Source: Haliotis rubra | Lineage: Eukaryota | DNA: 64,000 nt | NCBI RefSeq assembly: GCF_003918875.1 | Contig: NW_025766525.1 | Location: forward strand, 502,865 to 566,864 | Direction: 5' to 3' | Shown: positions 2,005 through 62,367 of the stretch, in pieces | Position numbering within the stretch: the stretch's first letter is position 1 | How the letters are laid out: each line of letters begins with the position of its first letter | Translations under genes and position numbers: made by a program | Notes under the pieces: model-generated | The model's database searches: none | What the model was told of the DNA's origin: nothing | Seen by the model: only the letters and a program-made list of their open reading frames with translations

Positions 2005-2744
2005 TCACTCGGTCAGGGTGGCAGGACACTGTCCACTGGAGAGAACAGAATGGCCAAAGCTCGCACGATCACGTGAATGTGTATCGAGCTGATAGTGCCT
2101 GATAAAAGTGCTAGGCCGGCTCCAAAGAGCGGCAGAGCATATCTCTTCAATGGGTAGTGCCGATGCAAAAGCTTTTGACGTGGCTACTGCCCTGACCGAG
2201 TGAGCCTTCAACCCCTCAGGGGGAGGCTTGCCCTTAGCCTGATAAGCACCACAAATGACCGATACAAGCAAGCGAGACAGGGTCTGCACCAGATGTTACC
2301 GCCACCAGAAATACAGCCTTCCATGATAACAACTAAATGGAAATAGCCGATAGACGTGAGAACGTAGGACCGGATAGCCAATCTAGCACAATTGACAAAT
2401 CCCAAGGTGGGCTGGTTCGCCTGACAGCAGGTAGAACCCGATCCGTGCCAGCTGGGAGAGGACCAGGGGAATGAAAGCGCTTGTACAAGAGGGTGCTGCC
2501 CCAGAAGAGCACCATCGACAGGGGTGTGAAAGGTGGAAATAGTGGTGGAGTAGCCACGAATGGTCGAAGCCGCCAGGCCTTCTTCCAAACGAGCTTGCAA
2601 AAACTCCAATACTCGGACTAAATCTGCAGCCCAGAAAAGAGATCTGCAATCCCCTATCTGCACCGGCCCTGCACCAGGGACGGCAGGATGCGGAGGCGGT
2701 GAATTATGGTGGGCCTCCCTTCCACAGTGGTAGGTGGCCGACAC
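2005..2744 (-). pseudogene. Tyrosine recombinase (DIRS/Crypton-type YR), split over two overlapping ORFs (frameshift)
   Basis: ORF 2208..2744(-) carries a SAM-like core-binding motif (LVRVLEFLQARLEEGLAASTIRGYSTTISTFH). ORF 2005..2289(-) carries the H-x-x-R box and catalytic Tyr region (HSVRAVATSKAF...WSRPSTFIRHY). The two ORFs are in different frames. Confidence 0.6.
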
Positions 2745-3067
2745 TGACGGTGGACCCCAGCACCCAAGTGTTGCTTGTAGCCTTTCCCCTCCGGCAGGGA
2801 ATAGAGGCGGCCTCCCACTGGGGCGATGTGGTAAGAGAGGCGTGAGTGGTCCGAGTAGCTTGAGCTGGTTGGGACGGACCTAATGGCGACAGCCTGCCAA
2901 GAGGGTTAGCAAGGAGTGGTCGAGGGGCAGACCTCAGCGCCCTTGAAAAGGCTGGGAGCCAGGCTGAGAGGGTTGCCTCCAACAAGGCCTTAGAATCCTT
3001 GAAGGAGGTAGCTGCAGTGGGCAACGCCTCCCCAGGCTGGAGGAAGGGCCAGGCAAGGTCTGCTATG

Positions 3068-4045
3068 CTAGCTGCCAAAGTGGTAAGGGCGCGCCTGGCA
3101 GGCGGAACTCAGCCGAGGCAACCCGGAGTGTCCCAACCAGGAGGGGGATCCACCGCGTCCTGCACCTGGTAGGGCACTGAGTGGTTGGTAGGCAAGCGCC
3201 TGCGCCTGGATAAACTCAGCAATGCTTTGCCGCACCTCCCTCAGAGCGTTGCCGCCTCCCTCAAGCGGAAAGCGCCCTCCGGCTCCTCTACCTCCCCAAC
3301 GTCCATGGACTCGGCAGCCCGAGAGGGCTGGGACAGCGTGAGGGACCGGAACCCCAGGAATCCAGAGGGAACGGACCCTGGAAGGAGCTCCCGCCAACAC
3401 CGTGAACCAGAGGGGACTGGGAGCGAACCCTCCCTCTCATGGGGCGTAGCGGGCGAGGACTCGGTCCCGAGGAATCCGACCGGGCCAGAGGCAACGGACT
3501 CTACAGACGCCTCCGGGGGTAGCCGAGGATCGAGCCGGCTCGGGCGATCCCACCAAGGGAGGACTCTCCGGACCTCCTGCTGCTCAGAGTGGGCGAGGAA
3601 CTCCTGCCGGAGACCTCCAACCGACTCATGAACAAGGGACTTCACTGAGTCCATGTGCTGCTGAAAAAGCTGTGTTATTACGGACATGTCAAAACCGCTG
3701 GGAGCAGTAGAAGGCGCGCCTTACTGCGCGACTTAGCCTTTTTGCCTGTTTTTTGGCTTTAGACGGGGGGACCTGGGTCAGTTCCCCTCCCGCCTCTCGC
3801 ATTTCTCTATAAAAGAGGAAATCGGCAGCCCTTCTTTTCTGGGCTCGGGGGGAGAAGCCCATACAGAGTTCACATATGTCGGGATTATGTCTGACTTTCT
3901 CCAGACAAACGAGACACTTGTCATGCTTGTCTGCTCTGGGTATACTTTGTCCGCAGACAGTACAACCGGAAAACGCCTGAAAGCAAACACGCAAGCATGT
4001 AGCTAACAGCGGAGCCAGCAGCATAAATATACACATACAAAACAT
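3068..4045 (-). other. Gag-like region of the DIRS-like element (Cys/His-rich ORF 3689..4045 plus overlapping ORFs 3241..3687 and 3068..3400)
   Basis: ORF 3689..4045(-) carries CTVCGQSIPRADKHDKCLVCLEKVRHNPDICELC, which has zinc-knuckle-like spacing. Its position upstream of the YR in the element's sense orientation fits a gag-like role. Confidence 0.35.
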
Positions 4046-4204
4046 TGAAAATTACGTGAATGCGACCACGGGAAGAAATACTTGGTTAAAACGCAATATG
4101 ACAACCACGTGGCACGCTAAACTTCCCGCCATGGCAAAGCAACAAGTGCGTAAACCACGGGAAAGTTAGCGGAAAATATTTAATACAAAGTCACAATTAT
4201 GAGA

Positions 4205-14545: not shown

Positions 14546-16119
14546 TGGCTTAAGAGAAAAATTAAAGATAAAGTTATGAACCCAAAAACCTTTTTTAACT
14601 TAGTCTGGGGGAATATCACACAATCTATATAATAGCAAGTTCAAGTTATAAGAAATCATTAAAGGTCACATGCAACCAAAAAATCAAACATAATTAAAAC
14701 ACAATTATCCCTTCTTCATGACATATAATATGCATTGCTGATTATGAAAAAACAAATAAACAAAATTATAAGCGTATAATCGCAAATCAAAAGTGCAATA
14801 TTTTGTACTTGGGTTTACCTCCCTCGAAACGAAGCAGCCGGGATACCGAACCCAGTCAGAGCGGGTGGGTGTGCACTCAAGTGTAACGGCTGGTTCATTA
14901 GCAGATGCTGCCTTCACGGCTCATTGTGTGTGTATATATAGAGATGTTGGGTTTTGTAAATACATGCTCATTTTTTGTGTATAACATTTTGCAATCAACA
15001 GACATCATAACATGTCATGTGTTCAAGTATCACACCTGCCTGTCTGTGTAATTACATAATGTGACAGAGACTGAACTCGGGCCATAAATCAATGCGTTTT
15101 GTTTATGGTGTATAGCCTGATTGGTGTTAAGTTCAAATTGCATGTGGTCAGTGATCGAAGTTGTGTATTGAATATTGTCATTAGCAGACAGGCAGGCAGA
15201 CACACAGGTGTCAATAAAACAAGACATTGAGTTTTGTCTTTGACAACGACATATCTATATCACAGTTAGAAATTGTGTCAACGCTAAATAATGACATTGC
15301 TTTTAAGTATCGAACTGAGAAAGTGACTCGGTAAGAAGAGCGTGTGGTCAAATAGACAAATGAAATTATATAAACAGTTTATTTACTGTCATAACATATA
15401 AAAAGCGGCGCCTGTGAGATATCAACAAAACATTATGAAAATAGCTCACACCAAAGCCTTCACCGAGTAATTCACCAGACAGCCCGCTTCGAACCTATTT
15501 CACTGCGCAAGACGCTATGAGCGCAGCCCAGCTGTTGAAACCTGTATTCCCCAGAAAAGTCTGGGGAAAATTAGTGAAACGTTTGAACTCCGATTTCTCG
15601 CGTTTTTTTCATCGCGTTATTTTTCAACTTTATAAGTTGAATTTGCATTTTTGACGCTTTGTTTCGGTAAGTCCATACCGAAAGGTATCAGAATCTGCAA
15701 AGTTGTGTTTTACGTTGCATGTGACCTTTAATTGTTTCATTCACTATCAGTCTACTGTGAAAAAAAAAAAACACTCAGTAAAGTCATGTATTCAATTATT
15801 CGAGGTTACAGTTAGTTGTGAGAAAAGACCTCTTTGAACTGACATGATTTCCTTCCGCAGCGTTATATAAAAGCATGATTGGCCTCAGTGAACTGGCTGG
15901 ACACATTGGTGAATGGCTAATTAAGTATGATAGTTAATTCTTTTTCATAGTAATTTTGTAAATACCGCTCAAATATGGCGATAACTTTTCAGCAGCCAGT
16001 GAGACATTTTGTGCCATTCATCACCACTCATTTATTTCTGTAACCTCTAAGAAGACTTGTCCTCTCGATGAATGTTGAGACATTTATGTGACTTAAACCT
16101 TGTAGGATACACAAGTCAA

Positions 16120-17395: not shown

Positions 17396-18175
17396 CTTTA
17401 TGGATAACAACTTCTTTTTATTGGTGAATGCGACGTTTTGATACAGATTCTTGTACCGTTGTCAAGCATAATGGAACATGAAGAAGGGGGAAGTATATAT
17501 ATACTGGATGTAACAATGGAACAAAGAAAACAACATAATTAACATAATTGGCTAGGCAGAAAGCTGATGAAGCCAGAGAGTAGACAAAGGACAGGCGTGG
17601 AAGCCAATGATGTACAAATAATAATGAGATGTTTATACAGCAGAGTTTATACAGTAGATTGGGCTTGGTGGATGAGTGCATCATAAGCGGATGGAATGAA
17701 GTATCCTTGGTCTCGGTTGATGGTGGGCTTTTGGCGTTTGATGTGGATGGCTTCGGTCATCTACAAAATATACTGTGATTGTGGGCAGAGCTACATAGGC
17801 GAAACTTCCCGACCCATCAACACCCGAGTGAAAGAACATCAGACCTCTGTTACCAATTCCGACAGCAAATCAGCCATTTCCGACCACATCAAAGCAAGCC
17901 CCAATCATCAAATAGAGTGGTCTGACATCACTATTCCCTCTAACAAACAAACAGACTTCACTAACCGCAAGCTCACCGAAGCCATCCACATCAGCTTTCT
18001 GCCTAGCCAATTATGTTAATTATGTTGTTTTCATTGTTACATTGTTACATCCAGTATATATATATACTTCCCCCTTCTTCATGTTCCATTATGCTTGACA
18101 ACGGTACAAGAATCTGTATCGAAACGTCGCACTCACCAATAAAAAGAAGTTGTTATCCATAAAGTTTGTGTCTGT
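17396..18175 (+). mobile_element. Penelope-like element (PLE) 3' fragment (GIY-YIG endonuclease domain) in an inverted partial-duplication arrangement
   Basis: ORF 17696..18019 encodes VIYKIYCDCGQSYIGETSRPINTRVKEHQ...AISDHIKAS...KLTEAIHISF, the PLE-type GIY-YIG with a CxC insertion. The ~180-bp 3' end (17990-18175) is present as its reverse complement at 17396-17580. Confidence 0.6.
17696..18019 (+). CDS. GIY-YIG endonuclease domain ORF (PLE-type), 5'-truncated element
   Basis: It has the motifs YKIY..CG..YIGET.R....R..EH and ...EAIHI. No upstream RT is present. Confidence 0.55.
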   Translation: MKYPWSRLMVGFWRLMWMASVIYKIYCDCGQSYIGETSRPINTRVKEHQTSVTNSDSKSAISDHIKASPNHQIEWSDITIPSNKQTDFTNRKLTEAIHISFLPSQLC

Positions 18176-20150: not shown

Positions 20151-21099
20151 GTTGGTGTAATTATAATGTTGTGGGTGAGTCAGCTACCTAGGTCCAAGGT
20201 TTGTTTGGAAGTCTAGTGAGTGAGTGAGGTTATTTTTATGCCGCACTCAGCAATATTCCAGCTATATGGCGGCGGTCTGTAAATAATCAAGTCCCGACAA
20301 GACAATCCAGTGATCACCAGCATGAGCATCGATCTATGCAATTGGGAACCGATGACAAGTCAGTGAGCCTGACCACCCGATCCCGTTAGTCGCCTCTTAC
20401 GACAATCATGGGTTACTGAAAATCAATATTCTAACCCAGATCTTCACAGGTATTTGGAAGTGTAGACTGCCAGTTGTCCGACTACCATTTTTGTGGAAGT
20501 CGCGGCAGCTGAGTGAGTTAGATGGCTGACTTTGTGTGCTGGCGATTAGGTACCTGACTCTGAGGGTGGGGGTCCCTCATGGGACTCAACCCAACAAAAG
20601 TACTACAATCTATACTTTACTGAGAAAGCAGAATATAATCCCAAATATAACATATGTTACATTTGACCACTTTCTAAATGGCATTGTGTATTCATATTCT
20701 ATTCCTATTAAATATAAGTGTACACATAACTGCATGGTAACAAGGTTATATACATTACTACTTAATAGTAACTATTCTTAATCTACCAAATCTTTATTAA
20801 AAGATATAAGACATAAGTCTGCTTAAATTTTCAGCAGTATGACTTTTTTCCCAATTTGCCTGCACTTGATGTGGGATCCATGGTGTGACAAACAAGTTAC
20901 AACTCAACTCCAATACAATCAGCCTAAACTCAATCCTTTACTCAGTTGCTCTTTCCCTCTGTCGACCCCTGTATCCACAGGCAAACTGTAGCACTAATAG
21001 GGTTGTGCATCAGAGAGTAAATGACCAGGAAGTATGTTGCCAACCTTTGTTTGTTTTGCTTGCAAATAGGAAGCCTGGTCATTTTTCTCTCTGTTGAGC

Positions 21100-21639: not shown

Positions 21640-22960
21640 CATGTAGGACTGGGCACAGGGGCATTTCACACTGAGAAACAGCGTTAGAAAGACATATAGG
21701 TATATGGACCCTACCCTAGTACTATATAAAATGAAAGGGATGTAACGATGGAACCACCCCCTGCTCAATCAAAGTTAGATTTCACTGCGTAAACTATATT
21801 TAAGGACCCGTCGAGGCCTACGGATCGAAAGCGAGATGATTTCCCTACAAAGAGAACTATAAATGGTCACAAGCGGATCATTATTTCAAACGTTATACGC
21901 CACAACTCACCGAAAACAGCTACCTCTGCAATTCCAAGCCAAAATCATGGATCACCCAAGACAGCAAAAACTCACCTTTTAAATTCATTTATTAATTCCA
22001 GCCACGTTGACAGTACCTATGTAGGGCTAGATTCGATCGGCAGCGTCATTCCACGGGTCTAAAAACTCATTGCAACATCTACAAATCATTTCCTCGACAG
22101 TAAGTAGGCATTTTCTCCCAAACCACCGGCAATCATAATCACTTGTTGGCCATAGATGGCCTTGACATTCAAGTGATCTGAGCAGATCCGCAGAAACTGA
22201 ACTGGGCCATCCGATTGGTGGAAAATATAATATACTGTAAGATTTTGCCTGTTTGCTAAAGGGCGCAAAATATGAACTTTGTAATATTCCTTCTATTCTG
22301 GATGATATAAGAATAATTTTAGAGGTTGTAAAAATGCATTCGATATTGATTTATTTTTAGGAAAATTTATTTATAAATATTTAACCTCTAAATTATTCTT
22401 ACCAATTTACTGCTCAGGTCTCTTAAATGTCAAGGCTATCTATGTCCGACAAGTGAGTATGATTGCTGATGGTTTTGGAGAAAAGTCCAGCTTACTGTCG
22501 AGGAAATGATTTATAGATGTTGCAATAAGGTTTTAGACCCATGGAATGCCGCTGCCGATCGAATCTAGCCCTACATAGGTGCTGTCAACGTGGCTGGAAT
22601 TAATAAACAAATTTAATAGGTGTGTTTTTGCTGTCTTGGGTGATCCATGATTTTGGCTTGAAATTGCAGAGGTAGCTGTTTTCGGTGAGTCATGGCGTAT
22701 AACTTTTGAAATAATGATCCGCTTGTGACCATTTATAGCTCATTTTGTAGGGAAATCATCTCGCTTTTGATCCGTAGGCCTCGACGGGGCCTTAAAAATA
22801 GTTTACGCAGTGAAATCTAACTTTGATTGAGGAGGTGGTGTTTCAGTCGTTACATCCCTTTCCTTTGATATAGTACTAGGGTAGGCTGTATATACCTATA
22901 TGGCTTTCTAACGCTGTTTCTAAGCGTGACACGCCCCTGTGGGACTGGGAGGTACTGTCC
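21640..22960. mobile_element. Foldback-like element, a long diverged inverted repeat (arms about 21640-22330 and 22350-22960) with almost no spacer
   Basis: The left arm 21640-22100 is the reverse complement, at roughly 80-85 % identity by eye, of 22480-22960. The arms continue inward to a palindromic centre near 22340 (aagaataattttagaggtt ... aacctctaaattattctt). A (cactcact)n microsatellite follows at 23003-23040. Confidence 0.55.
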
Positions 22961-51965: not shown

Positions 51966-52087
51966 AAAAGCTGATGGCTTTCAAAGGAGCTGATTTCTCA
52001 GCCTTTGATGATTATGATTCTAGTGAGAGCTTGGATGATGAATGGGATGACGGAGCCCAAGACAGTTTGCGGACATCTTATTTGTAG
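51966..52087 (+). CDS. PARP4: PARP4 putative terminal coding exon, with stop TAG at 52085-52087
   Basis: The acceptor is tgtttacag|AA. In phase 1 it reads EKLMAFKGADFSAFDDYDSSESLDDEWDDGAQDSLRTSYL* as an uninterrupted acidic tail. In phase 0 it stops immediately. Confidence 0.45.
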
Positions 52088-52276
52088 GTTGATTTACCCT
52101 TCGTACTGCTATAGGGACATCACAATCCCTGTGGAGGGTTGCTTCCCCTTGATGTACCAGGAACCTATGATGGTTGGTTCACATCAAGTTTGTGCCCTCT
52201 GTGTCCTGTATTAATATCTGTATTATTTTCACATTGGTGTATAGTCTCATTGGTCACCCAAGATAGCACACCTGGC

Positions 52277-52391
52277 TAGCTATTCTCGAAACGTTCGTAG
52301 CCCTACGGACTTCTTATTCCCATTCTTAAAACGTTGGCTACGATCAAACTTAAGAATTCTTAGGGCTACGAACGTTTCGAGAATAAGGGCA
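52277..52391. mobile_element. Palindromic MITE of about 115 bp with 5-bp TSD (ctggc), a filled site
   Basis: The sequence reads cacctggc|tagctattctcgaaacgttcgtagccct...agggctacgaacgtttcgagaataagggca|ctggcaactaa. The paralogous empty site near 53950 reads cacctggcaactaa. Confidence 0.7.
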
Positions 52392-52743
52392 CTGGCAACT
52401 AATTGCATAATCTCCCCCATTCTTTAAAGAACAAGTAAACTTTGTTTTTTTAACTATTTTTTACGATCTCTTTTAACTATTACATATGAAAGATTTGTGG
52501 TTAGTCTTATGTGGAACACCAAATTAATTCTTAAAAAACTTGTGATTAATTAATACCGAGCGATTAAAAGTTGCCAAAAAGTAGCCTGCTTCACTCTCGC
52601 CCGCAAACGAAACCACAGACAGGTTACGTAACTCTGTCGCCAGAGCACTGCAGTGACGTCATATGAGGAACGATTTTCAGTTAGTTGTATAGAAAGTGTG
52701 TAGCAAGCTCGTCATTTTGATGCTTTCTCGACATCAACGAAGA

Positions 52744-52925
52744 CATGCCGAATCGTTGTGTTGTCATCAATTGCTCCTAGGGGTCGGGTGATGGTGTCAC
52801 CATGCACAGATTTCCACAGGACCCCGCAGTTCGTGCTAAATGGGTTATGTTTGTGAGTGCGAAGCGAGCGTTGTGGAAGCCTGAAACGATATCTTACTTG
52901 TGTTCAGATCGCTTCACGGAAGTTA
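52744..52925 (+). pseudogene. Decayed THAP-type zinc-finger domain (P-element transposase-derived DNA-binding domain)
   Basis: The translation is MPNRCVVINCS*GSGDGVTMHRFPQDPAVRAKWVMFVSAKRALWKPETISYLCSDRF. The C-x4-C, HRFP, (R)AKW and WKP...LCSD[H to R]F hallmarks are present, but there is an in-frame TAG and the His ligand is lost. Confidence 0.5.
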
Positions 52926-53470
52926 AAGAATCAAAACTACTTACTAGTTGTAGTGAAATATGTATATGATTTATGACATAAAGATTGTCCATGACACAAC
53001 TTGTAACATAACGATTTCTTTCTCGGAAGCGAGGTGGTCGAAGTAACAATAATACTGTAAGTAGTATTATATTGACACCCACCTCGATTCCACGAGAGAA
53101 ATGTTATGTTATATCCTATGTCATGCAAAATGCTATTGGCCATCAATCAAATACATATTTTACTACCAGTAGAAAGTAGTTTGGATTTTGTAACTCGGTG
53201 AAAACAAACCTAAACAGCATTTATCCTCACACTGGCCGATGTTCGCGACAGGGCGCCGCAATTTTTTAAATACGTGAAGTCACGGGCTAAAGTCTGTTAG
53301 TATTAATGAGATTATGGTTTGTTTTCATCAAGTTAGAAAATCAGAACTACTTTCTACTCGTAGTTAAATATGTATTTGAATCATGACCAAAAGGATTTTG
53401 CATGACACAACTTATAACGTAATGATTTCTTCCACGGAAGCAAGAAGGGGTTCAAAGTCACAATACTGCG
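52900..53470. repeat. Diverged inverted and direct repeat cluster (hairpin arms about 52900-53030 and 53040-53170; a third, direct-orientation copy at 53330-53470)
   Basis: caaaactacttactagttgtagtgaaatatgtatatgatttatgacataaagattgtccatgacacaactt... recurs in the same orientation at 53330-53470 and as a diverged reverse complement at 53040-53170. Confidence 0.45.
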
Positions 53471-53904
53471 CGATAACTTTCTTGCTACATTCACGTGGTT
53501 AACGTCTATTCACCAGTATGCAGATACTAGTCAATGTACGTCTTTATATTTGGTCTTATAATCCTAATTAGTTTATTATCATACTTGTGTGCATTTTGAA
53601 ACTAAATAAAGAGGAGACAATCTGCTGATACTTATAACAGGACAGTAATATCTAGACATTTTATAGTTTGCCAATGTGAATCATAATCCGCACACACGCC
53701 CTATAGTGTATTCACGGCGAAAACAATGATTCTGTTGAATGCTACCACAAATGAATAAGAACAAAATGCAAATATCAAAATTAAGACAGATTAAAGTTAT
53801 AGGAACAATGTCAGGCTATTACCTTGCTCGGGGAATGTATCCATCAATATCCACAAAAACGAGATGTGTCTTTTAACATTCTAATATATGAAAAAGTGAC
53901 ATAT

Positions 53905-54010
53905 CGTTTCAGGTATTTCACATTGGTGTATAGTCTCATTGGTCACCCAAGATAGCACACCTGGCAACTAAATGCATAATGTCCGCCATTCTTTAAAAAA
54001 AAGTAATTTA
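53905..54010. repeat. Local duplication of 52215-52276 plus 52392-52440 (the empty-site paralogue of the MITE insertion)
   Basis: cacattggtgtatagtctcattggtcacccaagatagcacacctggc(aactaaatgcataat...) occurs at both places. Only the first copy carries the MITE. Confidence 0.7.
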
Positions 54011-54999
54011 GTTAGCCAACAATGAGCAATCAATCAATGTATTGGCGGTCAATCCTTTGAAAGAAGGACGTTGTTTTTTCGCAGACACAGACACGACAGA
54101 GTGTATTCAGTATAGATTAGTAAATCTACATACAAAAACACCACCTCTTGACAAATCCGCTGTGTAAGATAAAAGTAATTAATCAATCAGCGTGCTATCG
54201 GTTAATCCTTTGATCCTTTGATCGATGTTTATAATTTTGAGTATTTACTCCTGACACAAGAAATGTCAAATGGGAACCTTTGTCGGGTAATCTAAGTAGT
54301 GTTACCGCTAATTATTCCTGTTAAAATTCATTAACTGACCATCAAGTGAATGATGACAAATAACATGTGTAGGTTTATACCACCTAATCAGGTTACAGAA
54401 TCGTCTATGAAAACAAGTTGTAACTCGGAAACTAGGCAAAGTAGGAGACAAAAATAAATGACAGTAGATTGTGAGAACATATAGCTTTCATTTTTTTTTA
54501 CAACAGTTGTCACGATTTCAGGTTTATACAAACCTGTAAACAAGATAATTTACCCCCTGAAATGTACATGAATTCTGCATCAGCCCTCATATTTATTCCT
54601 CACATGATGTCACAGAGACGCATCGCTCTGATTAGTTGAAATTTCATGCGCGGGTGAGAATTGTGCACTGTTGTCAAAAAGGTCAATTTAAGTTAATTAA
54701 AGATCAAAATGAGTAGTTTTAATGACAAAGTTTCATTTATAACAATGCGACTAACAGGATCGGGTGGTCAGGCACATTGACTTGGTTGACACGTTATCAT
54801 ATCCCAGTTGCATAGGTTGATGCTCAAGCTGATTGTGTGGATTGTGTGGTTCATTTGTTGATTATTGACAGATTTTTAACACATTGCTTTGTTTCACCAG
54901 AACTGGGACTGAAATTGAAGAAGCATATACAGCTGGTGAGAAGAATAGTACCGATGACAGTCTAGAATCTGGTAGGTGTTTCAGGATTGTAGTTCTGGG

Positions 55000-55104
55000 C
55001 CCTTATTCTCGAAATGTTCGTAGCCCTAAGAATTCTTAACTTTGATCGTAGCCAATGAGTTGAGAATGGGCTTAAGAAGTAGGGCTACGAACGTTTCGAG
55101 AATA
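55000..55104. mobile_element. Second copy of the same palindromic MITE family
   Basis: The sequence reads ttattctcgaaatgttcgtagccctaagaattcttaactttgatcgtagccaa...agggctacgaacgtttcgagaata. The internal segment is inverted relative to copy 1. Confidence 0.6.
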
Positions 55105-55254
55105 GCCAGCCTGGCTAGTAACATTGTCTTGAATGCACATGTTAAAGATGCACTTCACACAATGCCTCAATAGCTGACATGTTCATGTGTTGTAAAGGCA
55201 CCAAGCACATTAGGGTATAAATGTTCAATTTAGTTTCCTGTGAGGAAGTGTGTG

Positions 55255-55560
55255 GTCATCACTGAGGTAAAAGATCATGGCAGACCTAGAAGACCGAGGA
55301 AGACCAATGACTGTTATGTTGTGACTGTTAAGTCCACACTGCTGGTGTGGTGTTGTGTGTGGCCATCAGTGAGGTAAAAGATCATCGCAGACCTAGAAGA
55401 CCGAGGAAGACCAATGACTGTTATGTTCTGACTGTTAAGTCCACACTGCTGGTGTGGTGTTGTGTGTGGCCATCAGTGAGGTAAAAGATCATCGCAGACC
55501 TAGAAGACCGAGGAAGACCAATGACTGTTATGTTGTGACTGTTAAGTCCACACTGCTGGT
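55255..55560. repeat. Tandem repeat, about 120 bp x 3
   Basis: ggccatcagtgaggtaaaagatcatcgcagacctagaagaccgaggaagaccaatgactgttatgtt.tgactgttaagtccacactgctggtgtggtgttgtgtgt occurs three times. Confidence 0.85.
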
Positions 55561-55952
55561 GTGGTGTTTTGTGTCAATGAGTTGGATCTCGTTACCGGGC
55601 GGAAGTACTGGATACTGCAATCATGCCACATTTGATCACCATCCCAATTCCAGGCCCAGCTTGTTACTGTAAAGGGCACTTGCTCTTCAGCCACTGGTGC
55701 TCCACAGGGATGTGCCCTTTCTCCTATCTCGTTTATTTGCTCTACAAATAACTGCCAGTGTACAATAACTGTCTTATGATGCAGCTCAGCTGGTTTTGAT
55801 AAGGATTCAGAACTGGAATACAAAGCAGAGATTTCTAAATTTGTCATGGTGTAAAGGTACTTTTCTATTCTTTAATTGTAACAAAACTACAGAAATTAGT
55901 ATAGATTTCAGAAAATGGAAATGGTCTTAGTCTTTGGTTCTGAAATTTTAAA

Positions 55953-56692: not shown

Positions 56693-57759
56693 GTGATTCC
56701 TAGCATTACATCTCAAGTGACGCTTCCTTGCAGTGCGGCGCTTTCCACTTTGGTGGTTGTTACTACGTCTGTTTCCCATTCGGTGTTTGCGTCGAATGTG
56801 TCACTTGCTTTGGGTACAGGGGATAGTTTTGATGCGGCGCTTTCTCATCCTCCGGTGGGGTTGACAAGTGTGTCGATGATTCCCAGAGTACCTTTTTCCA
56901 CTTCTATCCCGTATCCTGTACCGTTTGGTTATGGGCCACCATTCAGCGTTCTTGTTTGCCCCCAGTTCAGTGCTTACTACTGGTGCTCCTGGTTCGGCGC
57001 TTCCTCTCGGTGTTCCCGGTTCGGCGCTAATTCATGCAGGCTTGGGTTCGGTACTTCCTCATGGTGCTCCCGGTGCGGCGCTTACTCATAGTACTCCCGG
57101 TTCAGCGCTTCCCCACGGTGTTTGTGCTTCGGTGCTTAGGCATATTGTTCCTGGTTCGGCGCTTTCTCATAGTTCACTGGCTTCAAGATTGACTCATGGG
57201 GCGTTTGGTTCGCTGCTTCCTCAGGGTTTAGTGCTTACCTATCATGTGTCTAGTTCAGCGCTGGGTCCGCTCAGCTCAACTTTTGCTGTCAATGCCCGGG
57301 ACCTTACGGCTTCATCGTTGCTTCATAGGGGTGTGTCTCAGTCTGCTAGAGGTCCGTCTTCTCTTAGTGAGGTGCCACATCATCTCTCGGTGTCTGCTTC
57401 TGTTTCGTCGGTTCCTCCTACAATGGGATCGGTGGCCAGACCCATTTTACCGGTATCCTGGAATCTGGGGTCTGAGGTTTCGAGTTCTCAACCTATGGAC
57501 CTATGTTATTGTGCTAGCGGTAGCGTCAGCATTACGACAGCAGGTGTCAGCATCTTCCTCTGCTAATCAGTCATCAGGTCCTTTGACTACTCCAGTTCCT
57601 CTTTTAGAGGAGGTTCATCGTTCGACGACGCCATCTCCTTCGTGTGATGATACGGCACTATCCGATGGGTGCATGGATGCTGTTGACACACCTCAACTAC
57701 TTGTCTGGATTGCCGATAGCCTTCGTTTACAGCATAGTAGTTTGCCGGGGGATTTATAA
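56693..57759 (+). other. DIRS-like element 5' ORF region (putative gag-like), spread over three overlapping frames
   Basis: ORFs 56693..57091, 56925..57566 and 57244..57759 overlap in different frames and are Ser/Pro/Leu-rich. Frameshifts or decay are implied. Confidence 0.3.
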
Positions 57760-58473
57760 TCCAGTTTTGACATGAAGCCAGGTGACTTTGGCTCTATCAC
57801 GTTCCCGCCTCGTCCGTGTATTACTCAATTGGCAGCATCTCTGGATGAGGCTTTTGGTAACCTGAGGAAGGTTAAGGATGGGTTTGCGGCTCCTCACTTC
57901 AATTTAGCATCTGCTCATGTTCATGGTTTTTCTACGCTAATCGTCTCCCCTCCGGTGGATGATGATATTGCATTGCTGTGCACTAAACAGAAAGCCTACT
58001 CGCCGTTGCTGGTTGAGGATCGTGAGCTTTTGCATTTGGATGGTGTCATAAGGAAGATTATGCCGCCACTCAACATGTTGTTGAGGACTACCGAAGCGGT
58101 GGCTATGTCGGTTGCGCATGCTACGTCCCATCAACATGTGTGTATATTCGGGCAGCTATGGTCTTATTGCAACAGCAATTCCAGACCATTCTAGATCAGT
58201 TGGCTCACTTCTTTTCGTACATCACAGCTGTGCGTCGCATGGGGCCTTTGCACTTATCCTCTTTGGAGGATTGGTTCCGTATTGATCTCTTTCGGCAGCC
58301 ATGGTCTGGCAGATAAATTTTCAACGGGGCAGTTAGAGATGTCGCCAACAGAGTAGGTCAAGATGCTCATTTACAAGTGTCAGTGGAATTGTTGAAGTTC
58401 CAGCGTTTGCAGGTGGAGGAATCATTGCGCCAGCGACGGCCAGCCCGTTATGTCCATGTGAATCCGGACCTTC

Positions 58474-59364
58474 GTGCGGGTTCTGCTGCTTCCTTTCGTG
58501 GTAATGGATCCTTTGGGAGAGGACGACTCAACCATCAACGTCGGGCATCCACTGCTTCACAATCAGCTCCCACTTCCGACCAGCCCACTTTGCAAACACC
58601 TGACAAACAGTGACTTGAGGACATTAGCAGGCGACTTGGTTCTTCCACCTCCAGTCATGCCCATTCTGACTTCCCCAGTAGGCGGCTGGCTTGGGACTTA
58701 TGCTCCCAACTGGACCATCTTGGGAAACCCCTTCGTCCTCTCCATGTTGTCCATGGGTTTTCAGCTGCCACTCATCGGGGATCCTCCTCTCACTTTACTT
58801 CCAGATCGCAGAACGTATCCCGCTCAACAAACGGCAGTTCTGCGATCCACAATAGACACCTTACTCAAGAAACTTGCGATCGAATCCCTGGGTCCGGCTC
58901 CCACCGCCCCGGGGTTCTATTCTCCAATCTTTCTGGTCCCCAAGAAGGATTCGGACAAACTGAGGTTAATCTTCAACATGAAGATTTTCAACGAGATGTT
59001 TCTGCAGCCTCCGCCCCATTTTCGCATGGTATTGGTGGCACTCCTCAAGACCATTATCAAGCCGGGAGACTACATGGTCAGTTTGGATCTCCAGGATGCG
59101 TACCTTCACATCCCGATCTTCCTGGCTCATCACAAGTTCCTTCGGTTTGTCTTCGAGGGCACCCACTATCAGTGGCGTGTCCGCCCGTTTGGAATTTCTT
59201 CAGCCCCGTGGCTGTTTACATGGGTAACGAAACCTATCACCAGCTTCCTTCACCACAAGGGGATAGTGTTCGAAGCTTACATTGACGACTGCATTCAGGC
59301 GCAGACCGATCATGCCCTTTTGCTTCGTCACATGCAGTTACGATACAGCTTCTTCGCCAATTAA
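58474..59364 (+). CDS. Reverse transcriptase domain ORF of the DIRS-like element
   Basis: It carries FYSPIFLVPKKDSDKLRLIFNMKIFN (RT motifs 1-2), LDLQDAYLHIPI (motif A/B region), QWRVRPFGISSAPWLFT and YIDDCI (a YxDD-like box). Confidence 0.8.
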   Translation: MRVLLLPFVVMDPLGEDDSTINVGHPLLHNQLPLPTSPLCKHLTNSDLRTLAGDLVLPPPVMPILTSPVGGWLGTYAPNWTILGNPFVLSMLSMGFQLPLIGDPPLTLLPDRRTYPAQQTAVLRSTIDTLLKKLAIESLGPAPTAPGFYSPIFLVPKKDSDKLRLIFNMKIFNEMFLQPPPHFRMVLVALLKTIIKPGDYMVSLDLQDAYLHIPIFLAHHKFLRFVFEGTHYQWRVRPFGISSAPWLFTWVTKPITSFLHHKGIVFEAYIDDCIQAQTDHALLLRHMQLRYSFFAN

Positions 59365-59813
59365 GCTGGTTAATCAATCTGCAGAAATTGGAACTAGCCC
59401 CTATGCACCATCTTCAATTCATTGGAGCAGTGTTCGACACAGAGGCCAACAAACTCTTTGTCCCGAGGGATCGTTTCTACAAGATTCAGCGATTGGTTTC
59501 TCTGGCACTGGTGCAACCCAGGACGCTTCGTCAGTGGCAGGAGCTCCTGGGCCTCTTGACGTCGGCTCAGGCGTTCACCCTCAGGGGTCAACTACAACTT
59601 CGTCCCTTGCAGTTCTTTGTAGCGCCTTACATCAGAGTGGGAGATCCCGTTGCCTTGATCACTCTACCTCTGCAGCTCCATCCCCATCTCCTGTGGTGGA
59701 TGGCAGAATTGAATGTTTGCGACGGAGTTTGTTTAGGGCCGTTTGTTCCGTCTTACCACCTGTATGCGGACGTGTCTCTACACAGGTGAGGAGCTCATCT
59801 TCTCAATCAACAA

Positions 59814-60407
59814 GTGGCAGGGCGGTGGTCTCCCATCGATCGCGCCTGTCACATCAACGTTCTGGAGTTCAGGGCGGTGATGCTTGCAATCAGTCACTGG
59901 CAGGATGTCCTACGAGCAACTTCCCTCATGATCCGGTCGGACAACGCAGCGGTGATTTGGCATATCAACAGGATGGGGTCCACGGGGTCAACTCAACTGC
60001 TGCAGTGGACCCAACGGTTTCTTCGATCTGGTGGACTCTCTCCACATCATGGTATGAGCCAACTACATTCCGGGGGTGAAGAATGTCATCGCAGATTCTC
60101 TGTCCCGACTGAGTCGTCCCTCTCCAACGGAATGGAAATTACATCCTCAGGTGTTCCAGACCTGTTGCCTTCCATTGACGACTCTGACAGTGGATCTCTT
60201 CGCCACTCAATTCAACCATCAGCTGCCTCGGTTTGTGTCACCGATTCCGGATCCTCTGGCTTGGGACCTCGATGCCCTAGCCATTCCGTGGGAGGACCTG
60301 AACGCTTACGCGTTTCCACCAGTGGCCCTTCTTCCTCGCATATTAGTGAAGCTGCGTGCAACTCAGAGGATGACTCATCTTTTGGTCGCGTCCTATTGGC
60401 CGGCTAG
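59814..60407 (+). CDS. RNase H domain ORF of the DIRS-like element, frameshifted relative to RT
   Basis: It carries INVLEFRAVMLAI and IRSDNAAVIWHINRMG, typical RNase H catalytic motifs. The adjoining ORF 60076..60561 carries KNVIADSLSR, the end-of-RNase-H motif of DIRS/Ngaro pol. Confidence 0.65.
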   Translation: MAGRWSPIDRACHINVLEFRAVMLAISHWQDVLRATSLMIRSDNAAVIWHINRMGSTGSTQLLQWTQRFLRSGGLSPHHGMSQLHSGGEECHRRFSVPTESSLSNGMEITSSGVPDLLPSIDDSDSGSLRHSIQPSAASVCVTDSGSSGLGPRCPSHSVGGPERLRVSTSGPSSSHISEAACNSEDDSSFGRVLLAG

Positions 60408-60506
60408 AAGCTGGTTCGTAAACCTTCAAGACATAGCCGAACCAGATCCCGTGCCACTTCCTGTTCGACCTGATCTACTGGTACATCCGCACACCGACCA
60501 ACTGCA

Positions 60507-61644
60507 TTGGTCCCCGATGACGCTCCATCTGCACGTTTGGTGCATCTACATCGGTCGTTAACGGCTAAGACCTATTCTAAGCGTGTGGCTACTGCCATTA
60601 CTACAGCGCATCGTACTTCTACGAGGTCACTCTACGATGACAAATGGAAGAATTTCAAAGCGTATTGCAGGAAGAGGGGCGTCTCATCCCTCACTACGGC
60701 GTCCCCGCAGATGGTGGCAGAGTACCTTTAGCATCTCTGAACCTCCAGAAAACTCAAAGGTTCTTCACTAGCTACCTATCTGGTGGCTCTTAACACGGTT
60801 ATTGCAGCGGCCTCAGGTGTGAAGGTGTCCACCGAGCTGAACTCGAGTCTCTCCTCCGGTCTTACACCCGCCGTGATGTTGCTGGAATATTGCTAAAAGC
60901 AACGTAAAACCAAACTCAGTCAGTCAGTCTTACAAACTGGCTCACCAATCTCGGAAGTTCCGGCCTCCAGCTTGGAATCTTTCCGTTGTACTTGCTCATC
61001 TCACGTCAGCTGATTATGAACCTTTGGAAGAGAAAGATTTCGAACATGTCTCCTTTAAGATCTTCTTTCTATTGGTCTTGGCTACGGCTGCTCGTATTTC
61101 TGAGTTGCATGCTCTTGATGATTCTCGGGTGCGGTTTGAAAGGTCTAGACATACAAAAGTTTTCCTTGGTTTGCGGTGGGATCTTCTCGCCAAGAATCAG
61201 TTACCAGGACAGCCGGATCGCACATTCACGATTCCGCCGTTGTCCTCTATCTTGGGCCCATATGACACTGAGGATCTGTCCTTATGCCCGGTGCGTGCAT
61301 TAAGGATTTACTTAGCTGCCTCACAGGATCGCCGCAGACTGCGTAAAAGATTGTTCATTCCATTGTCTACTGCCTCCACCTCGGAAGTCTCCCGTACTAC
61401 CTTGGCGTTTTGGATGCGAACTACAATCCTGCGTGCTTATGCCTTTGCTGACCTACCTCCACCGTCGAAGGTGAAGCGTCATGAGACTCGAGCTCTTGTC
61501 TCCACCATGGCTCTTCACAGAAATTGTTCCCTGCAGTCCATCATGGAGGGCTGTTTTTTACGATCAGATACGGTGGAAGGTCTACATCAATTCGGCCCCC
61601 TGGTCCTGGCGCAGCAATTGTCATCGGCCCGCGTTCGCAGATAA
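60507..61644 (+). CDS. Tyrosine recombinase of the DIRS-like element, across two ORFs (60507..60731 and 61024..61644)
   Basis: The N-terminal part is SLYDDKWKNFKAYCRKRGV...VAEYL. The catalytic part carries FLLVLATAARISELHAL, CPVRALRIYL and RHETRALVSTMAL (H-x-x-R box). Confidence 0.75.
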
Positions 61645-62367
61645 AGCAATCCTTCTTTGGTCGGTGTTGCTCTGTACATAATAAAAGATATCGATGTAAT
61701 CCATGTCTTGGTACTTTTTTCTATTTGTGCTTAGATTATTCTCACCTATGGGAATAGAGCGTGTCTGCACTGTCATCAGTTATGACTTAATAGACTGTGA
61801 GGCCAGTCTTGTGCTACATGCAGAGATGATCGACACTCCACTTACTGACCTCTACGCTCTGAGCAATTACGTCAGTTAAGTGTTGATTTCCGATTACATA
61901 CATGGTTTTCAAAGCGTTCTGCTCCTGATTCCTTTCTCACCTTTGGTACGTTAGGGAGATTGGTACTGAACGTTAAACTAGTTGAGCAACCGAACTATTC
62001 CCTCTTTCACCGCCTTCCAGCGTGTGTCTGTGGGGGGTAGTTTCGAAGCAGGGACTGGCCAGATTAAGGTCCTCAACTTTAATTCACTGGGGTCACCTGA
62101 TAAATCGCGGGACGGCGGTGCCTAGTTGCCGAACTGCATCCTTTTGCTTGTCAAAAGTTGCGGCTGAAAACCACATTAATTCGGGAACACCCACTCCCTA
62201 GAGTTTTTGTGCTGTGTAAGCCAAGGGGTTACGTGAAGAAACCCATCTCAAGTTGGAGTTTGCATATCGGGAGTTGGTGCTTTCTCCTGGCCTCCTTGGG
62301 TTATGCGTTTTTCCTAGTGGTAGTAACGGGGTAATCTGCGACTTGCCTACCAGCCGTGGGATTATGC

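Follow-up and report, generated by a model that had tools for sequence, protein, structure and literature searches.

The window, by which we mean the whole 64-kb stretch of DNA that was analyzed, carried exon-like ORFs of a PARP4-like gene on the + strand from ~18.4 to 52.09 kb (18400-52087). The concatenated translation gave matches with PARP catalytic and VIT domains, some of which were named PARP4, and the pieces of the gene were BRCT-like, PARP regulatory and catalytic, VIT, and vWA-type C-terminal segments. When the exon peptides were used (twice) as protein queries, no Haliotis orthologue was among the matches. Dozens of minisatellites were found in the window, and long minisatellite arrays, with periods of 23-111 bp and up to 68 copies, filled the introns of the PARP4-like gene. 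The last PARP4-like ORF ended with a stop codon at 52085-52087, and an ATTAAA sequence was located at 52563.

Seven loci totaling 134 kb were used for comparison, namely, six Haliotis loci (H. rufescens and H. asinina) and a metagenome contig of 5 kb that was reached through DIRS protein matches. Several interspersed repeats of the window recurred in the loci of both Haliotis species with 70-97% nucleotide identity. The interspersed repeat at 14658-15731, which lies upstream of the PARP4-like gene, was also present in two H. asinina loci, L003 (6433-8185) and L006 (1825-3073), at 71-83%. The SINE-like repeat of ~190 bp at 20218-20414 had many copies in the loci of both species (73-90%), and a related piece was located at 54744-54872. 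A large foldback occupied 21696-22899, with arms at 21861-22174 and 22422-22740, and it matched positions 968-1499 of L006 at 76-81%. Toward the other end of the window, positions 56700-61650 of the + strand held a DIRS-like retroelement (RVT_1, a weak RNase H, and further ORFs). The best matches of its reverse transcriptase were in Haliotis (50-69% identity), and the element showed 62-66% aa identity (RT and C-terminal ORFs) and ~64% nucleotide identity to H. rufescens elements in loci L001 and L002. On the - strand, overlapping ORFs at 2200-4050 formed another GC-rich set, which may represent a further DIRS-like element. Taken together, the features of the window are those of animal rather than prokaryotic DNA, and the source is probably a gastropod that belongs to Haliotis or is close to it.

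Two copies of a short non-coding DNA transposon, a MITE of 113-117 bp, were located beyond the PARP4-like ORFs. Copy 1 began ~190 bp downstream of the last recognizable PARP4-like ORF and occupied 52275-52391 of the + strand (117 bp, GCTAGC...AAGGGCA). This sequence was absent from a paralogue in the window (at 53961) and from both H. asinina homologues. The left inverted repeat of copy 1, TATTCTCGAAACGTTCGTAGCCCTA (52281-52305), was complementary to the right inverted repeat (52361-52385) at 25 of 25 positions, and the predicted hairpin fold had an energy of -51 to -53 kcal/mol (-52.9) and a z score of about -9 to -10 (-9.9), with shuffled sequences at -22 ± 3. Thus, the palindromic insert of ~115 bp that had been reported in the initial annotation was borne out by perfect 25-nt inverted repeats and a strong hairpin fold. 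MITEs are generally non-coding and smaller than ~800 bp. The element described here was 113-117 bp and non-coding, with near-terminal inverted repeats and a TSD shown by an empty site. The sole ORF across it was a 46-aa read-through, which had no relatives, and thus no ORF called across another copy of the MITE, among 1.84 billion protein representatives. Given its position past the last PARP4-like ORF, the copy 1 hairpin might be transcribed; nothing indicated a cellular function for the MITE or an influence on the PARP4-like gene.

Copy 2 was located at 54998-55110 on the - strand (113 bp, reading GGCCCTTATT...GAATAGCCAGC on the + strand) and was 89% identical to copy 1 by blastn. When the two copies were compared in full, 103 positions were identical and 10 differed by substitution, with a single indel of 4 bp; this corresponds to ~91% over the aligned bases. 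The inverted repeats of copy 2 (55004-55028 and 55080-55104) matched at 24 of 25 positions, and its hairpin fold had an energy of -47 to -55 kcal/mol. The copies were 2.6 kb apart, in opposite orientations, and had unrelated flanks. In copy 1 orientation, both began with GCTRGC and finished with AAGGGCM, and in both, the inverted repeats started 6 nt inside these asymmetric ends, such that the first and last 6 nt of the element were not complementary. The end type was GGCCCTTATTCTCGAAACGTTCGTAGCCC. An "internally inverted" second copy had been placed at 55000-55104; the copy is real, but it extends over 54998-55110, and the inversion affects the entire element, given that its non-palindromic ends (GCTRGC and AAGGGCM) had changed places as well.

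Copy 2 had its own surroundings. An exon-like segment was found at 54921-54972 of the + strand, with an acceptor (...tttcaccag|A), an open frame (TGTEIEEAYTAGEKNSTDDSLES), and a donor (CTG|gtaggt). This segment stops ~25 bp before copy 2, so copy 2 may be intronic. Directly downstream of copy 2, at 55248-55574, a 107-bp unit was repeated in tandem 3.1 times with 97% identity.

Next to copy 1, the evidence for an insertion came from a comparison of a filled site with a paralogous empty site. Within the window, blastn aligned 52227-52276 with 53916-53965 at 50 of 50 positions (E = 2e-21) and 52392-52438 with 53961-54006 at 42 of 47 positions (89%; E = 1e-11); thus, the flanks were homologous. 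The two matches overlapped in subject coordinates by exactly the duplicated bases. A spliced global alignment of the filled and empty copies placed the start of homology at 52227/53916 and its end near 52440/54006; upstream of 52227 and downstream of ~52440, the surroundings of the two copies were unrelated. The shared segment had been said to start at 52215/53905, and while such a segment exists, its true start is ~11-12 bases later. Between these limits, the filled copy (52227-52438) contained 120 bases more than the empty copy (53916-54006). The left flank of the filled site (52227-52271) was identical to 53916-53960, and the right flank (52395-52438) was part of the 89% match. Taken literally, the filled copy had a CTGGC (52272-52276), then 115 bp (52277-52391), and then a second CTGGC (52392-52396), and the empty copy read without interruption as CACCTGGCAACTAA. 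The read-through that had been claimed for the second copy was therefore found, but the string quoted for its right-hand side differed between the window copies by a single base (aactaaTTGCATAAT versus aactaaATGCATAAT). All five differences in the filled fragment were on the right (5 of 47 bases), and none were on the left (50 of 50 matching). The probability of this one-sided pattern would be ~0.03 if the differences were evenly spread, and it may reflect chance or conversion.

Two homologues in H. asinina, at unrelated loci on different chromosomes (L003 and L006), were also uninterrupted at this position and read GATAGCACACCTGGCAACTAA. In total, there were three empty homologues, namely, one paralogue in the window and two in H. 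asinina, and each contained a single CTGGC. The target in these sequences belonged to a host repeat. Positions 53529-54381 of the + strand, which include the empty site, were collinear with L003 3840-4787 and L006 17609-18569 at 69-86%. This segment represents one copy of an interspersed repeat whose length is 2 kb or more, because L003 3553-5543 and L006 17328-19320 matched each other with 91% identity over ~2 kb. In contrast to this copy, the filled locus at 52227-52438 was a 97-bp fragment of the host repeat, and its surroundings were not homologous to that repeat. The 3' part of the left flank (from 52245) was 94-97% identical to L003 4299-4330 and to L006, and the right flank (52392-52423) was 83-84% identical to the two loci. 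The two window copies were each other's closest relatives, yet they were members of a dispersed family. Thus, the "local duplication" in which the initial annotation had placed the MITE is at best a partial description: the mutual closeness stands, and what is present is a full copy and a 97-bp fragment of a dispersed repeat that also occurs in H. asinina. The homology with the H. asinina repeat ended at 54381, before copy 2, and copy 2 therefore lacks an empty site.

Several other features were observed in and around the host repeat. Its core, TGGTCACCCAAGATAGCACACCTGGCAACTAATTG (window 53934-53975, L003 4299-4340, and L006 ~18060-18100), was almost invariant, and the sequences around it were 69-80% alike; this core is the target of the MITE and a conserved motif without an assigned role. 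Between the filled and empty sites, positions 52745-52939 of the + strand held a THAP-domain pseudo-exon (MPNRCVVINCS*GSG...HRFPQDP...CSDRFTE; Pfam E = 4e-9) with an in-frame stop codon, and THAP-like pseudo-ORFs were also present within an H. asinina repeat (L003 6982-7053 and L006 2362-2487). At 52913-53465, three units of ~115-130 bp (52920-53033, 53104-53231, and 53295-53444) were arranged in +, -, and + orientation and were 73-84% alike. This array is a foldback-type repeat to which no family was assigned.

We also considered whether the empty site could have been produced without an insertion, either through loss of the sequence between the two CTGGC microhomologies or through precise excision, and whether the hairpin could be a palindrome that was generated locally. 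Excision by PIF/Harbinger elements is usually precise and takes one TSD copy with it (PMC2836001), so an excised site would resemble an empty site. However, three independent homologues lacked the element, two of them in H. asinina, which argues that the repeat family ancestrally lacked the MITE and makes deletion or excision a very unlikely source of the empty site. In addition, the 113-117-bp unit recurred 2.6 kb away between unrelated flanks. We regard an origin without insertion as highly improbable. The filled/empty pair that the initial annotation had claimed was confirmed by the two flank matches and the 120 extra bases: the MITE is a real insertion, for which the filled site is precise and an empty site is provided by a paralogue.

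The number of duplicated bases was a separate question. The initial annotation had given a 5-bp TSD of ctggc, and copy 1 alone was compatible with any duplication up to CTGGC, with 5 bp fitting equally well. Specifically, the copy 1 junctions were ...CAC CTG GCTAGC[TIR...TIR]AAGGGCA CTG GCAAC..., and the copy 2 junctions, in copy 1 orientation, were ...AGC CAG GCTGGC[TIR...TIR]AAGGGCC CAG AACTAC.... All TSD placements of 2-5 bp were listed by hand, with the boundaries fixed from copy 1. Among all of these placements, CTG/CAG, one of the three of 3 bp, was alone in being perfect (3/3) in both copies. The putative TSD copies are CTG at 52272-52274 and 52392-52394 in copy 1 and, on the + strand, CTG at 54995-54997 and 55111-55113 in copy 2; the alignment of filled and empty copies located the right-hand duplicate in copy 1, the window paralogue carried a single CTG at 53961-53963, and the copy 2 boundaries were carried over from copy 1 by alignment. 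If uniform base frequencies are assumed, the flanking trinucleotides of copy 2 would match by chance with a probability of 1/64, and the probability that they would match each other and conform to CWG as well is ~1/2000.

The 5-bp duplication did not hold in copy 2, where CAGGC would be paired with CAGAA. A true 5-bp duplication of CTGGC, perhaps from a CWGGC target, would place the element in a superfamily with 5-bp TSDs or in one that is undescribed. Exactly five bases were duplicated in copy 1 relative to three empty sites, and both copies read CWGGC (CTGGC or CAGGC) to the left of TRGC, which speaks for this proposal. The right flank of copy 2, CAGAA, would then require two adjacent substitutions in an element that is otherwise ~9% diverged, whereas the left-hand resemblance to CWGGC is accounted for at no cost if GC is part of the element. 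Moreover, the ends of a 5-bp element (TAGCT.../TGCCC...) match neither the CACNNTG of Transib nor the TGTNR of Ginger. On balance, we consider a 5-bp duplication unlikely, although it is the strongest of the alternatives. Slightly less likely again is its more specific form, in which the target would be a true five-base CWGGC-like sequence, the ends would be asymmetric and neither CAC nor TGT, and the MITE would be a non-autonomous member of a DNA-transposon lineage undescribed in molluscs.

A 4-bp duplication of CCWG was also weighed, with one copy of the duplication mutated in copy 1. CCAG flanks copy 2 on both sides if the element ends one base earlier. The same placement in copy 1 would give CCTG...ACTG, and the three empty sites indicated that the A before the right-hand CTG is not target sequence; the element boundaries would also disagree between the two copies. 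The two 4-bp placements matched at only 3/4 and 2/4 positions, and we judge this duplication length improbable, well below the 5-bp alternative.

We therefore return to the 3-bp CWG duplication, which would give the same boundaries (GCTRGC...AAGGGCM) in both copies (n = 2) and which we estimate to be roughly three to five times as probable as one of 5 bp. On this view, GC is both the start of the element and the continuation of the target, a coincidence that makes the duplication in copy 1 look like 5 bp; on the 5-bp reading, copy 1 would be 115 bp (52277-52391). The 3-bp reading is probably correct, drawn as it is from two copies and thus short of a demonstration.

Searches for further copies and relatives were carried out within and beyond the window. 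No third copy was detected elsewhere in the 64-kb window by blastn, and no copy was detected in the 134 kb of comparison loci by blastn, a TIR search allowing 5 mismatches, or nhmmer. A metagenome scan with a 21-nt TIR pattern gave no match. A two-arm pattern had a single match, in metagenome locus L008, and we rejected it as a chance match because the 13-nt core GTTCGTAGCCCTA was all that L008 and the MITE had in common; the rest of the hairpin was unrelated. Rfam had no family for the MITE, and its hairpin match to MIR5185 was sub-threshold (24.6 bits compared with a gathering score of 101.7; E = 0.13). The 64-kb window contained no autonomous partner that had the same ends as the MITE and encoded a DDE_Tnp_4 transposase together with a Myb/SANT protein.

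Several superfamilies were rejected on the basis of their TSDs and termini. Transib elements have a 5-bp TSD and RSS-like CACNNTG termini; the MITE ends on the 5-bp reading would be TAGCTAT and TGCCCTT, and copy 2 had no matching 5-bp TSD. Tc1/mariner, piggyBac, and hAT elements have TSDs of TA, TTAA, and 8 bp, respectively, and in the MITE, the empty sites cap the duplication at CTGGC. Ginger1 and Ginger2 elements have TGTNR termini and, in metazoans, a 4-bp TSD (CCGG/CCGT, or within RTATAY) (PMC2836005); the MITE ends were TAGCT/TGGCT or GCTRG, and its TSD was not 4 bp.

G-rich and GC-rich termini are usual among PIF/Harbinger elements, and one end of the MITE (GGCCCTT/TGCCCTT) is of this type. 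Within the PHIS (PIF/Harbinger-ISL2EU-Spy) superfamily, CWG TSDs are the defining feature of the NuwaI group (Han et al. 2015, PMC4482050). Because CWG duplications define NuwaI, we suggest that the element is a Tourist-like, NuwaI-type PIF/Harbinger (PHIS) MITE with a 3-bp CWG target that is mobilized in trans, and we place the probability of this assignment at about 0.7. The transposition mechanism can be drawn from what is known of the family. A DDE transposase of NuwaI type would move the MITE in trans, with the help of a Myb/SANT-like DNA-binding protein that would recognize the inverted repeats. The target would be cut at C|CWG|G with a 3-nt stagger, and gap repair of the staggered cuts would yield the CTG...CTG duplication.

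The existence of CWG-duplicating PIF/Harbinger relatives (NuwaI), including in a mollusc, was known already (PMC4482050), and the MITE represents ordinary biology. The ends of this small mollusc MITE are defined by an unusually clean filled/empty pair, the value of which is mostly for annotation. The locus also carries a lesson, namely, that an element whose start mimics its target can make a 3-bp duplication resemble one of 5 bp. If the CWG duplication holds genome-wide, the known range of CWG-targeting Harbinger relatives would grow to include an abalone-like gastropod, and repeat masking would gain a consensus. A more modest form of the novel reading given above, if true, would make this the first recognized NuwaI-type (CWG) MITE family in vetigastropods, located within or just past the 3' end of a PARP4-like gene.

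The NuwaI group was set up via paralogous empty sites (Han et al. 2015, PMC4482050), and the same approach was used for the MITE. It includes 23 families in 16 animal genomes, and four of them are in the oyster Crassostrea gigas (Harbinger-2/4/5/8_CGi = NuwaI-1..4_CGig) (PMC4482050). We set the MITE beside these families by their published descriptions. The MITE appears to share the 3-bp CWG TSD (CTG/CTG and CAG/CAG in copies 1 and 2, respectively; n = 2), and its inverted repeats of 25 bp are inside the 12-61 bp range of NuwaI TIRs (PMC4482050). NuwaI is known from animals that include a mollusc, and the host of the MITE is probably a gastropod. The target in copy 1, GCACACCTGGCAAC, and the integration target of zebrafish Harbinger3_DR (NuwaI-2_DRer; PMC4482050), AAACACCWGGTCTTT (PMC3016246), have ACACCWGG in common. 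With regard to the palindromic core CCWGG, copy 1 had CCTGG (within CACCTGGCA) and copy 2 had CCAGA (within GCCAGAA), which matches at 4/5 positions.

There were also differences between the MITE and NuwaI elements. Autonomous NuwaI elements code for two proteins, a DDE transposase and one of the Myb/SANT type (PMC4482050), and are 1.6-8.5 kb with transposase and Myb-like ORFs, unlike the MITE, which is 113-117 bp and non-coding. NuwaI TIRs usually start with GGG (PMC4482050), where "usually" allows exceptions, whereas the MITE ends are GGCCCT/TGCCCT and GCTRGC, and its outer 6 nt are not inverted repeats. The GGC/TGC and GCT ends, instead of GGG, and the non-complementary outer 6 nt count against NuwaI membership.

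Tourist-like MITEs such as mPing are likewise miniature and non-coding, with terminal inverted repeats and a 3-bp duplication. PIF/Harbinger transposition needs both proteins, and Tourist-like MITEs depend on the PIF/Harbinger transposase and ORF1 protein in trans (PMC2836001), a dependence that would also be expected of the MITE described here. The triplet duplicated by classical Tourist/PIF elements is TWA (TTA/TAA), and their targets are AT-rich, whereas the MITE appears to duplicate CWG in a GC-containing target. In NuwaII, the sister group of NuwaI, the targets are C|TNA|G, the bases beside the TSD are conserved, and the TSD is subject to the same ambiguity between 3 bp and an apparent 5 bp (PMC4482050). 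Thus, the MITE shares this ambiguity with NuwaII, but the core triplet of NuwaII is TNA and that of the MITE is probably CWG, the triplet that defines NuwaI.
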